From Candidatus Kapaibacterium sp. (lineage in GTDB: Bacteria > Bacteroidota > Ignavibacteria > Kapaibacteriales > UBA2268): 64,000 nucleotides of DNA. The stretch covers positions 1,344,001 to 1,408,000 of the forward strand of contig OY761611.1 of NCBI GenBank assembly GCA_963664875.1. Direction: 5' to 3'. Of the stretch, positions 45,001-48,000 are shown one piece after another (position 1 is the stretch's first letter; each line of letters begins with the position of its first letter). Position numbers: made by a program.

Positions 45001-48000
45001 TCCACTTGGAAAGTTCATAGAAATACCTGCTATAAGCAGGGATGATGGATTAAACAAAGCTCTAAAATCGCAAGGTCGTTCAATAGAAATACCTGCTATA
45101 AGCAGGGATGATTTTTCTAATTCTCCTATATAAAAAAAGCGGTCTGTATAGAAATACCTGCTATAAGCAGGGATGATTTAAGTAAGCATACATACTAAGG
45201 CAACCTGCTTCTTGATAGAAATACCTGCTATAAGCAGGGATGATTTGTTCTTTGTAAATATCATATAATATAGTAAATTATAGAAAGCCAAACACAAACT
45301 TTTCTAATCTGGGGGGATTTATGGAAAAGCAAACGTTAGTAAATTATCTTGATAAGTTGACAGATAAGCGTCGCAGGGAAGGCACACGCCATAATCAATC
45401 ATTTGTATTATTGCTGGTTTTGATGGCGACTATGAGCGGACAATATGGCTATCGTGGCATAGAAAGATTTATAAAGAAGAATGCCGAAGACATACTGAAA
45501 TATTTAAAGCCTCATAAAGATAGATTACCAACTTACGCAACAATTTTTAGAGTGGTAAATAATATAGATTTTGATGAATTTGCACAGATTTTTAAAGAGT
45601 GGTCAAAAGTTTATGCAAAGCCTCAAAGCGGTGAAATAATCAGTATAGATGGCAAAGCTTTGAAAGGCACATTAGTAGAATACAATTCGAAATACCAGAA
45701 CTTTATAAGCATTGTTTCTGCACATTCTCAATCAAGTAAAATGTCACTAAGTATAAGCAAATATGAGAATAAAAAATCAAGCGAGATAAGCGTAGTTGAA
45801 GAAATGATTAGAGATTTAGAACTGACTGGCGTAGTCTTTACAATGGATGCTTTACACTGTCAAAAAAACTCTAAGAACAATTGTTAGTACTAACAACAAC
45901 TATATTATTTGCGTAAAAAAGAATCAAGGTCGTTTGTACAAAGAACTGGAGAGTTTGAGTTCGAGCTGGTCAACAAAGATCGATTATTATAAAACCGAAG
46001 AAACTAATAGAGACAGACGAGAAACTCGTAAAGTATATGTATATTCATTAAACGATAAAATTAAGAACGAGTGGTCCGGATCACAGCAATTAGTAAAGGT
46101 ACAAAGGATTAGAAAAACAAAACAAATGCAGGAAGTTCATGTACATTATTATTTGAGCAGTCAAGAAAAACCAGCAAAGTATTATATGCAGAGCATACGA
46201 GGACATTGGGGCATTGAAAACCAGCTACATTGGGTAAAGGATGTGGTAATGAAAGAAGATGCTTGGAAAGTGAGAAATACACAAGCAGCTTCAGTCATGA
46301 GTATAATAAAGTCAATTTGTATCAATATTTTTAGGTCAAAGAAGCGTATTGATTGTACCAACTTTTTCTATGAGACTGCCGACAATGTAGAACTATTGGT
46401 GACTTTGTTAGAATGAATCAACCCTGCTGCTATAAGGGGTTTAAACTAAAAGGCAATAAGCTGTATTTGACGTTAGGACTTGATAGAAATACCTGCTATA
46501 AGGGGTTTAAACTTTGGTAATGATGCTAAGAGCTGCAGCACATCACTAATAGAAATACCTGCTATAAGGGGTTTAAACGAAGGCAGCCATGATGACATGG
46601 TAGATGCGACAACAATAGAAATACCTGCTATAAGGGGTTTAAACTTATTTCACCTCTGTGATAAAATTTTCAGCACTAAGATAGAAATACCTGCTATAAG
46701 GGGTTTAAACAATTCTAATGAATATTCTTTAGCTGTTTCCCGTGCAAATAGAAATACCTGCTATAAGGGGTTTAAACGAAATTAAAGAAAAAAAACTATT
46801 AGATTTTGCTGAATAGAAATACCTGCTATAAGGGGTTTAAACTAGACTTCAACTGAGACATAAACTGAGAAATATTAAATAGAAATACCTGCTATAAGGG
46901 GTTTAAACCATTCATTAAAAACTTACAATAAAAAAGCATGGAAAAATAGAAATACCTGCTATAAGCAGGGATGATTTGTTCTTTGTAAATATCATATAAT
47001 ATAGTAAATTATAGAAAGCCAAACACAAACTTTTCTAATCTGGGGGGATTTATGGAAAAGCAAACGTTAGTAAATTATCTTGATAAGTTGACAGATAAGC
47101 GTCGCAGGGAAGGCACACGCCATAATCAATCATTTGTATTATTGCTGGTTTTGATGGCGACTATGAGCGGACAATATGGCTATCGTGGCATAGAAAGATT
47201 TATAAAGAAGAATGCCGAAGACATACTGAAATATTTAAAGCCTCATAAAGATAGATTACCAACTTACGCAACAATTTTTAGAGTGGTAAATAATATAGAT
47301 TTTGATGAATTTGCACAGATTTTTAAAGAGTGGTCAAAAGTTTATGCAAAGCCTCAAAGCGGTGAAATAATCAGTATAGATGGCAAAGCTTTGAAAGGCA
47401 CATTAGTAGAATACAATTCGAAATACCAGAACTTTATAAGCATTGTTTCTGCACATTCTCAATCAAGTAAAATGTCACTAAGTATAAGCAAATATGAGAA
47501 TAAAAAATCAAGCGAGATAAGCGTAGTTGAAGAAATGATTAGAGATTTAGAACTGACTGGCGTAGTCTTTACAATGGATGCTTTACACTGTCAAAAAAAC
47601 TCTAAGAACAATTGTTAGTACTAACAACAACTATATTATTTGCGTAAAAAAGAATCAAGGTCGTTTGTACAAAGAACTGGAGAGTTTGAGTTCGAGCTGG
47701 TCAACAAAGATCGATTATTATAAAACCGAAGAAACTAATAGAGACAGACGAGAAACTCGTAAAGTATATGTATATTCATTAAACGATAAAATTAAGAACG
47801 AGTGGTCCGGATCACAGCAATTAGTAAAGGTACAAAGGATTAGAAAAACAAAACAAATGCAGGAAGTTCATGTACATTATTATTTGAGCAGTCAAGAAAA
47901 ACCAGCAAAGTATTATATGCAGAGCATACGAGGACATTGGGGCATTGAAAACCAGCTACATTGGGTAAAGGATGTGGTAATGAAAGAAGATGCTTGGAAA

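Follow-up and report, generated by a model that had tools for sequence, protein, structure and literature searches.

An ISAs1-family insertion sequence with its transposase split between two frames at a conserved A7 run, a candidate recoding site, in a type I-B CRISPR array

The insertion sequence and the CRISPR array it interrupts

The window, a 64,000-nt stretch of the Candidatus Kapaibacterium sp. genome in whose positions all coordinates are given unless a contig position is named (window position 1 being position 1,344,001 of contig OY761611.1), carries two copies of a 1194-bp insertion sequence (IS) of the ISAs1 family. Copy 1 lies on the forward strand at 45234..46427, with both of its open reading frames matching the family model NF033564; copy 2 (46965..48158, forward strand) is identical to it, has the same orientation and its own A7 run (47593-47599), and is inserted in another CRISPR repeat at the same point of that repeat. 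Genome-wide we counted seven full copies, six of them identical; the one at contig position 2592040 differs at five positions, none inside the A run, and the run is therefore the same in all seven, as an earlier, preliminary description had said. CAGGG-type terminal inverted repeats are a hallmark of the ISAs1 family in ISfinder, and this element extends from GCAGGG to CCCTGC: the left repeat (GCAGGGATGATTTGTTCT, 45234..45251, forward strand) agrees at 15 of its 18 positions with 46410-46427 read as the reverse complement, and the right repeat (46410..46427, forward strand) was read from the sequence as ending in CCCTGC. Comparison of the flanks revealed an unstranded 8-bp target-site duplication, TGCTATAA, to the left (45226..45233) and to the right (46428..46435) of copy 1, which becomes a 10-bp duplication, CTGCTATAAG, if the IS is bounded as CAGGG/CCCTG. 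Target duplications of 8-10 bp and a length of about 1.2-1.5 kb are usual for the family in ISfinder; the 1194 bp of the present IS and the direct 8-bp flanks (also readable as 10 bp) found at five of the seven copies, at different sites, fit this description. At the other two copies (contig positions 2078468 and 2173056) the 8-bp flanks are inverted and not direct, as had been noticed before; recombination between IS copies was rejected by reasoning as their origin, as it did not reproduce the observed flank pattern. The target preference of the IS is CC-N8-GGG. The flanking palindromes CCCCT-N6-AGGGG were rejected as part of a repeated element, with no unoccupied copy in the genome vs. 0.45 expected, and from this we take the target to be simply a rare GC-rich site. 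In the whole genome there is no intact ISAs1-family gene elsewhere, the 14 half-matches to NF033564 being those of the seven split copies.

Profile matches place the interference genes cas6, cas8b, cas7, cas5 and cas3 at 37865..44494 on the forward strand (TIGR01877, TIGR02556/PF09484, TIGR02590, TIGR02592 and the cas3 HD and helicase models), followed by a 126-bp leader that runs from the cas3 stop up to the first repeat (44495..44620, forward strand) and by CRISPR array 1 (44621..50490, forward strand), in which a repeat scan found 53 starts of 30-nt repeats, with degenerate ones at the right end. The five genes adjoining the array are those of type I-B, and cas4, cas1 and cas2 are absent at this locus; the sole cas1 of the genome lies about 770 kb off, beside cas4 and cas2. 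Reading of the repeats at 44621..45244 (forward strand) revealed ten 30-nt hybrids with nine unique spacers of 35-38 nt, each hybrid joining 20 nt of the CRISPR repeat to the initial 10 nt of the IS in its CAGGG bounds. The repeat that IS copy 1 split was the one nearest the leader in this type I-B array, which afterwards gained nine spacers. We consider it quite likely that the locus preserves a natural experiment on CRISPR adaptation, comprising insertion after base 20 of the repeat, nine exact 30-nt duplications in trans, altered handles and the use of arrays as landing sites. In such a course of events, the adaptation enzymes of the distant locus would have acted in trans on array 1, with each spacer addition duplicating exactly 30 nt (20 of the repeat and 10 of the IS end). 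The repeat-ruler model has been established in the laboratory for the type I-B system of Haloarcula; the hybrid repeats are a field test of that model and, if the above is true, would demonstrate in nature that distance and not sequence determines the leader-distal cut. The nine newest spacers would then carry a foreign 5' handle, GGGATGAT instead of GTTTAAAC, which may leave them blind or change their processing, and this bears on the function of crRNAs with altered handles. Three of the seven IS copies lie inside CRISPR arrays and, taken together with the CC-N8-GGG preference, this suggests that the IS may use arrays as safe landing sites. For two spacers of the hybrid region, no exact match was found in viral contigs, and hence no PAM was derived; the repeat of array 1 was not found in the four congeners searched. 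The IS end and both leaders have the 10-mer TTGTTCTTTG in common. As a functional element this 10-mer was set aside, its 30 genome occurrences vs. about 15 expected giving it little weight.

The two frames, their conservation and their relatives

The transposase of this IS is divided between two overlapping frames. ORF1 (45321..45887, forward strand, 188 aa) comprises the DDE_Tnp_1_assoc domain and, with the motifs IDGK and DALHC, the first half of the catalytic core, while ORF2 (45847..46416, forward strand, 189 aa), in the +1 frame, comprises the second half, including GIENQLHW. Within the overlap lies the putatively slippery A7 run (45862..45868, forward strand), contained in the codons CAA AAA AAC in the context CACTGTC-A7-CTC; on rereading, both run and frames were as first described. 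A run of at least about seven at a frame junction is expected of a slippage gene, and in-frame joining of ORF1 to ORF2 would need A6 or A9. ORF1 matches PF13808, as reported before, and ORF2 matches PF01609, although over positions 86-200 and not 91-200 as first given, with the two together supplying the N-terminal and catalytic domains. On NF033564, a 314-position ISAs1 model with a family cut-off of 70 bits, ORF1 scores 122.7 bits over positions 1-151 and ORF2 141.4 bits over positions 148-314. Of the catalytic residues, the first two aspartates reside on ORF1 and the glutamate on ORF2; the break separates the second Asp from the Glu, and thus neither half alone is a complete DDE enzyme. In a fused relative of 363 aa, residues 3-181 and 175-361 align end to end with residues 6-184 of ORF1 and 2-188 of ORF2. 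The start codon of ORF2 is not conserved: the ATG of the window copy (45847) is ACG in congener G001, and upstream of the run the ORF2 frame lacks any ATG, GTG or TTG in 21 of 58 unique split loci and lacks ATG in 51 of the 58. This alignment and the unconserved start codon argue for one gene and not two. The ISAs1 type element has a single uninterrupted ORF, in contrast to the two frames joined at A7 here; we treat the two-frame arrangement as a trait of the clade and see in it no ground for exclusion from the ISAs1 family.

Purifying selection acts on both ORFs. Congener G001 harbors nine full copies of the IS (the preliminary description gave at least seven) which are 81% identical to the present one, with A7 and the same frames in all nine. 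In comparison with the G001 copy, pN/pS is 0.130 for ORF1 (pS 0.623) and 0.222 for ORF2 (pS 0.565) vs. 0.96-3.7 for the off frames, which contain 13-25 stops, in keeping with the earlier report of low ratios in the two ORFs only. To this is added a constraint on the nucleotides themselves. Across 59 unique sequences, Gln is invariably encoded by CAA (56 of 56) and the codon after it is always AAA (59 of 59), whereas immediately 5' of the run the codons for Asp, Ala, Leu, His and Cys use the full range of synonyms. A run conserved beyond the need of the protein, with the ORF arrangement kept, is characteristic of slippage genes, and together with the pN/pS values it bears out the earlier view that selection maintains the break.

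Relatives were drawn from the best 80 of 498 confirmed matches, a locus set covering 57 assemblies and at least six phylum labels. Seventy-five of these best 80 loci are split at the same codons by a run of A7-A9, a number that is not a clade-wide share of split forms, the DALH..K motif being contained in one of the two search patterns. As anticipated, relatives with A8 and ORF2 at -1 predominate (60 of the best 80 loci), followed by A7 with ORF2 at +1 (10), A8 at +1 (two) and A9 at +1 (one); -1 readings with other runs occur at L061 (A9, decayed) and L123 (A7, frame uncertain). The remainder of the best 80 consists of two loci in which A8 is followed by a later return to frame, one cleanly in frame (fused, with an AAG interruption) and two with no ORF2 nearby. 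On the tree, these loci are separate from three fused representatives of the order (SH-aLRT 99), and the +1 state requires eight changes, with the starred branches forcing at least six. The order-wide search found matches in 10 of 254 genomes, including this one (G000) and G001: there were five split copies in four genomes (A9 at +1 in G144; A8 at -1 in G053, G215 and, twice, in G231), decayed pieces in G173 and fused genes in G023, G013 and G228. The earlier tally for the order was slightly different. Among the best 150 protein representatives, 99 are 174-231 aa long, 21 are below 174 aa, 10 have 232-323 aa and 20 have at least 324 aa, close to the previous count of 20 long forms and about 98 of 174-229 aa. 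These comparisons support the earlier proposal that a split at the A run is likely a trait of a large branch of the ISAs1 family.

Proposed synthesis of the full transposase

Judged from these sequences, recoding of some kind at the A run is very probable. The IS has transposed recently and is seemingly active without a helper, because it is present in seven copies (six identical, at different sites) and yet the genome has no intact gene of the family. We postulate an active ISAs1-family IS with its transposase encoded in two overlapping frames, where RNA polymerase most likely slips on A7, giving rise to a minority of transcripts with A6 or A9. The A6 transcript would encode ...DALHCQK-TLRTIV... 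and the A9 transcript ...QKKTLRTIV..., which matches fused relatives in length; translated in the ordinary way, these transcripts would yield full transposase, while unslipped mRNA would yield ORF1 only. To judge from OrfA of IS1 and IS3, the role of ORF1 is probably to bind the IS ends and damp transposition. Seven As are at the short end for slippage, and the yield may perhaps be very low. Given recoding, we regard the polymerase as the likelier agent, with the ribosome receiving the smaller share of our belief; toward the explanation as a whole, i.e. full-length transposase arising only after a programmed slip on A7, with that slip being transcriptional, we lean only slightly.

Two systems lend weight to slippage by the polymerase. 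In the available text of Antonov et al. 2013 (PMC3711429), clusters of DDE_Tnp_1 (PF01609) transposases have poly-A sites with paired +1 and -1 shifts, a pattern read there as transcriptional realignment; the IS family is unnamed in that text, and the clusters may or may not include the present clade. By the argument of these authors, the repeated changes of direction on our tree support a transcriptional reading here as well. IS1447 of Clostridium thermocellum likewise has its transposase at an A run, with slippage that is transcriptional, goes in both directions (about 16% each) and needs no more than seven As (PMC6211511); it differs in belonging to the IS3 family and in having an A9 run after an RNA stem-loop, in contrast to the lack of any conserved structure found by the run in the present element.

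Foremost among the alternatives, and in our view possible but unlikely, is ribosomal recoding, in which the run length of the mRNA would remain as templated and Lys-tRNA would slip +1 on A7 and, in the A8 relatives, -1 on A_AAA_AAA. The A8 loci, which make up most of the clade, are well suited to this, with their codons CAA AAA AAA containing the heptamer A_AAA_AAA in phase; a -1 slip leads to QKKT, the same product as a transcriptional slip, so that for most of the clade the comparisons do not discriminate between ribosome and polymerase, and in E. coli, cassettes with A_AAA_AAA shift frame at about 10% according to Antonov et al. (PMC3711429). The present IS, however, needs +1, a direction of ribosomal frameshifting not known from any IS according to a 2016 recoding review (PMC5009743). 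Also against the ribosome are the following: 1) there is no consistent stop or special codon 3' of the run in the +1 loci; 2) an SD-like motif 3-22 nt upstream of the run is present in 0 of 61 unique sequences; 3) RNAalifold found no consensus structure around the run (energy 0.0; 46 unique A8 sequences, -70 to +100, and seven A7 sequences) in an ungapped, run-anchored alignment, where structures that shift in position could be missed. Stimulators of this kind are common in ribosomal frameshifting cassettes, albeit not obligatory. Furthermore, the six or more switches between -1 and +1 would demand that two ribosomal mechanisms be swapped each time.

Slippage by RNA polymerase also has to be weighed against slippage in the DNA, whereby replication would produce A6 or A9 in rare cells, the transposase would be phase-variable and the A7 copies would be carried along. 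Replication slippage is indeed common at homopolymer runs, and Baranov et al. 2005 mention, in the section available and with the family unnamed, Nostoc IS copies that are identical but for runs of 8-10 A (PMC1088944). We nevertheless find this improbable, given that not one in-frame copy was seen in this genome (7 of 7 read), G001 (9 of 9), Waterburya (10 of 10), Scytonema hofmanni (4 of 4) or Calothrix PCC 7716 (3 of 3); as the copy on which a transposase acts tends to be its own, to go by the same 2016 review (PMC5009743), new copies should often carry an in-frame run if the slip occurred in DNA. The assembled contigs of four sequencing runs also displayed no indel at the A run where they cover it and no difference from the window, bearing in mind that contigs drop rare variants and do not reveal heterogeneity in run length; of the nine sequencing runs listed, none is recorded as RNA. 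Least credible of all is that ORF1 and ORF2 assemble as separate polypeptides into a split transposase, for which the ATG of ORF2 in this genome and the two overlapping CDS given by RefSeq for a Nostoc plasmid relative might speak, or that dead copies are spread by something else, as the start codon is unconserved even in the congener, the break falls inside the catalytic core, dead copies would show neither pN/pS values of 0.13 and 0.22 at a pS of about 0.6 nor CAA AAA kept in every sequence, and the genome has no further ISAs1-family gene. All in all, the numbers of the preliminary description came out the same or stronger wherever they could be recomputed and its interpretation is supported; that programmed slippage supplies the full transposase is what we infer from them.

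Known systems and significance

The arrangement is not wholly new. ISAcma12-type elements of Acaryochloris belong to the same family and share the architecture, with an A7 run (CCC-A7-CAC) at the DALHAQK codons and ORF2 at +1, although their ORF1 is only about 31% identical to the present one; RefSeq gives the name 'ISAs1-like element ISAcma12 family transposase' to a CDS of 1090 nt that begins with ORF1, crosses into the second frame and ends at the stop codon of ORF2, the joining being deduced from RefSeq coordinates and length. The preliminary description, which had the family listed as single-ORF, needs correction here, since not every annotation treats it so. Our literature search found neither ISAcma12 by name nor a description of frameshifting in the ISAs1 family; with no paper naming ISAcma12, the mechanism seems undocumented beyond the RefSeq annotation. 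Canonical ISAs1 from Aeromonas salmonicida shares with the present IS the DALHCQ motif, a DDE transposase, a length of about 1.2 kb and CAGGG/CCCTG ends (CAGGGCGGG.../...CCCGCCCTG), but differs in having a single CDS of 366 aa, the site CAG CGT GAG without an A run and an ORF1 identity of about 31%. In the IS1, IS3 and IS5 families, as set out in the available pages of the 2016 review (PMC5009743), -1 ribosomal frameshifting on A_AAA_AAN, an A-rich site, joins an upstream ORF for DNA binding to a downstream catalytic one and keeps transposase low, with the break usually between the DNA-binding and catalytic domains; in the present element, by contrast, the break is inside the catalytic core, the frames are related by +1, and neither SD-like nor structural stimulators were found.

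Those pages list IS frameshifting only for the IS1, IS3, IS5 and IS630 families (PMC5009743), and a cross-phylum clade of ISAs1 elements that depend on a slip would add a family to that list. Hundreds of short entries named 'ISAs1 family transposase' look like halves of one recoded gene, and their treatment in RefSeq is inconsistent, with two CDS for the Nostoc plasmid relative vs. one spanning CDS in Acaryochloris. Finally, the repeated flips within this clade between runs that lack one A and runs that lack two, relative to the in-frame A9, would make it a good system to separate slippage by the polymerase from slippage by the ribosome.

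One transposase gene in two frames

Copy 1 of the ISAs1-family IS is 1194 bp long (window 45234-46427), its ends forming imperfect inverted repeats (GCAGGGATGATT... on the left, ...AATCAACCCTGC on the right) with a direct TGCTATAA on either side. The genome (G000, a single contig of 3.83 Mb) carries seven full copies, six of them identical; in the seventh, ORF2 alone carries substitutions, 5 in number, of which 3 are synonymous and 2 alter the protein (Q to R, L to S). ORF1 (188 aa, window 45321-45887) is overlapped by ORF2 (189 aa, window 45847-46416) in the +1 frame, and within the overlap lies a run of seven As (A7, window 45862-45868), read as CAC TGT CAA AAA AAC. 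ORF1 matches PF13808 and ORF2 the distal part of PF01609 (positions 86-200); on the ISAs1 model NF033564 (314 positions) they cover 1-151 and 148-314, and on a fused 363-aa relative they align with residues 3-181 and 175-361, respectively. Judged by these alignments, ORF1 and ORF2 are one gene in two frames, broken between the second catalytic Asp (DALHC) and the Glu (GIENQLHW).

The preliminary description held that this break is kept under selection, and comparison with the congener G001 bears this out. When 41 related genomes were searched at the DNA level, the element turned up in G000 and G001 only, apart from a 59-nt trace in G004. Nine full copies, falling into three sequence variants, are present in G001; they share 81% identity with the G000 element, and the A7 run and the frames are unchanged in all nine. 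The pN/pS between the two species was 0.130 for ORF1 (pS 0.623) and 0.222 for ORF2 (pS 0.565) vs. 0.96-3.7, with 13-25 stops, in the four off frames; the ATG of ORF2 in G000 is ACG in G001. No other ISAs1-family gene was found in the G000 genome, the 14 model matches being both halves of the seven copies. Since its identical copies occupy different sites and the genome offers no intact helper, the element must make its own enzyme.

Insertion sites and the CRISPR arrays

Insertion sites in both species read CC-N8-GGG, often within a CCCCT-N6-AGGGG palindrome, of which the genome holds no unoccupied example (0 vs. 0.45 expected). Two copies have inverted, not direct, 8-bp flanks, the difference residing in the two central bases only; by our reasoning, recombination between IS copies does not yield this pattern. 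Two copies 7 kb apart in opposite orientation (G000:C1:2078468 and 2085320) have near-identical flanks over at least 150 bp on each side, one with direct and the other with inverted 8-bp flanks, and a related flanking element is also present at copy 2592040.

Copy 1 resides in CRISPR array 1 (window 44621-50490, 30-nt repeats ATAGAAATACCTGCTATAAGGGGTTTAAAC), next to a type I-B locus of cas6, cas8b, cas7, cas5 and cas3 (window 37865-44494); degenerate repeats at the right end of the array place its leader on the left, beside cas3. Eight repeats further down lies copy 2 (window 46965-48158), identical to copy 1, in the same orientation and at the same position within a repeat. At the leader end just upstream of copy 1 (window 44621-45244), we found ten repeats, each exactly 30 nt, that are hybrids, with the first 20 nt from the CRISPR repeat and the last 10 nt (CAGGGATGAT) from the start of the IS. 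Between them lie nine different spacers, which at 35-38 nt match the remaining 43 spacers in size; no hybrid repeats precede copy 2. The simplest account is that spacer uptake continued after the IS had split the first repeat: the IS would have inserted into the leader-proximal repeat, adaptation at the leader would have gone on, and each uptake would have copied 30 nt measured from the leader junction. This agrees with a laboratory result on repeat duplication in the type I-B system of Haloarcula hispanica (30-bp repeat), where the end of the duplication is sequence-independent and set at a fixed distance from a mid-repeat motif (PMC4872114). A non-exhaustive literature search found no description of such hybrid repeats. 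Array 1 holds one 36-nt spacer in two places (window 49239-49274 and 49371-49406) with a single other spacer between, suggesting that it was either duplicated within the array or taken up more than once.

The type I-B locus in the window (37865-44620) lacks cas1, cas2 and cas4, and the sole cas1 of the genome lies ~770 kb off in a second locus (G000:C1:2148001-2158000) comprising cas6, cas3, a cas7-like gene, cas4, type I-B cas1 and cas2. Its array 2 (G000:C1:2157126-2176320) has 273 repeats of 30 nt, unlike those of array 1. Both leaders contain GTCGTCNGGCT and TTGTTCTTTGA, and the arrays have two spacers in common (35/35 and 34/36 identical), with near-equal boundaries and the same orientation, which are old in array 1 (window 50161-50195 and 50227-50262; in array 2, G000:C1:2169572-2169606 and 2163632-2163667). 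These shared motifs and spacers suggest that both arrays are served by the second locus. A third IS copy (G000:C1:2173056-2174249) sits inside a 38-nt spacer of array 2 with inverted flanks (CTCAAGAG / CTCTTGAG); thus three of the seven copies lie in CRISPR arrays, which make up ~0.6% of the genome.

The 10-mer TTGTTCTTTG, positions 12-21 of the IS left end (window 45245-45254) and present in the congener's IS, also occurs in both CRISPR leaders (window 44600-44609 and G000:C1:2156964), but with 30 occurrences in the genome vs. ~15 expected this sharing may be due to chance. Two genes upstream of the cas cluster (window 34654-36652), for a DUF6371 protein and then an AAA_25/DnaB-like ATPase, may belong to a mobile element. 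Just past the trailer end of array 1, an ORF (window 50708-51661) encodes an HTH_17 domain at its C-terminus and weakly matches the MADS1 antiphage helix-turn-helix model.

Spread and annotation of the split form

Across the order, ORF1 was matched in 10 of 254 genomes, G000 and G001 included. Splits at the codons seen in the G000 element occur in five copies from four genomes: G144 has nine As (A9) with ORF2 at +1, and A8 at -1 is found in G053, G215 and G231 (two copies). In G173 there are decayed pieces, and the more distant members in G023, G013 and G228 are fused without a pure run. In a wider scan with one genome per species, 498 relatives were confirmed and the best 80 (57 assemblies) retained; the frequency of splitting among them does not stand for the whole clade, since they are the top scorers and the motif formed part of one search pattern out of two. 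By NCBI phylum label the 57 assemblies are mostly Cyanobacteriota and Bacteroidota, with Ignavibacteriota (2), Thermodesulfobacteriota (2) and single MAGs of Actinomycetota, Moraniibacteriota and Mycoplasmatota.

Among these best 80 of 498, 60 loci have A8 with ORF2 at -1, 10 have A7 at +1, 2 have A8 after TGT at +1 and 1 has A9 after GG at +1. Two more were read as -1 (L061 with A9, decayed; L123 with A7, frame uncertain), 2 with A8 come back in frame further on (L059, L085), 1 is cleanly fused with CAA AAA AAG ACA (L068), and 2 have no ORF2 nearby. In most of the best 80 the gene is thus split at the same codons, in keeping with the earlier proposal that the split is a trait of a large branch. 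The run in all split cases is one or two As below the length giving the consensus QKKT. Across 59 unique sequences, Gln is encoded by CAA in 56/56 and the codon after it is AAA in 59/59, and all synonyms are in use over the five codons before Gln. The best 150 protein representatives include 99 of 174-231 aa and 20 of at least 324 aa, the fused ones reading DALHCQK(K/E/N/D/Q)T.

In contrast, the type element ISAs1 of Aeromonas salmonicida, with ends CAGGG...CCCTG, has a single 366-aa CDS with CAG CGT GAG at the site. Public annotation of the split clade is inconsistent: a Nostoc plasmid relative with A8 (L132) appears in RefSeq as two overlapping 'ISAs1 family transposase' genes, and an Acaryochloris plasmid copy (L135) as one CDS, 'ISAs1-like element ISAcma12 family transposase'. 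The latter, of 1090 nt (3 x 363 + 1), begins at the start of ORF1 and ends at the stop of ORF2, with an A7 run at +1 in between; it spans both frames, and therefore at least one member is already handled as frameshifted in curated annotation. No paper naming ISAcma12 was found in the literature searched.

Proposed slippage at the A run

On a tree of the ORF1 part, built by a quick method with the motif residues omitted, with several long branches flagged and rooted by choice on the three fused order-level members, the 79 run-bearing rows stand apart from those members (SH-aLRT 99), and the +1 state needs 8 changes, at least 6 of them forced by well-supported branches. No SD-like motif was present 3-22 nt upstream of the run (0/61), no shared RNA structure was found by RNAalifold from -70 to +100, and 21 of 58 unique split loci have no ATG, GTG or TTG in the ORF2 frame between the upstream stop and the run. 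We surmise that the transposase is most likely made via RNA-polymerase slippage at the run, a mechanism that accommodates the gain of one or two As as well as the loss of one at a bare homopolymer. For transposase families in which the shift direction is not conserved, Antonov et al. came to this conclusion too (PMC3711429), and experiments on IS1447 show that seven As are enough and that slips occur in both directions (PMC6211511). For the A8 majority, -1 ribosomal frameshifting is an equal candidate, suited by the in-phase A_AAA_AAA heptamer of these loci. For the A7 element of G000, the ribosomal route would be a +1 shift, which is unknown in IS elements according to a 2016 review (PMC5009743).

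IS frameshifting is listed in that review for the IS1, IS3, IS5 and IS630 families only. Baranov et al. (2005) described IS copies of Nostoc whose runs contain 8-10 As, with no family named (PMC1088944), and these may belong to the same clade. The breadth of the split ISAs1 clade and its two-way switching seem undescribed so far, and the split form of the IS in G000 is itself well supported.
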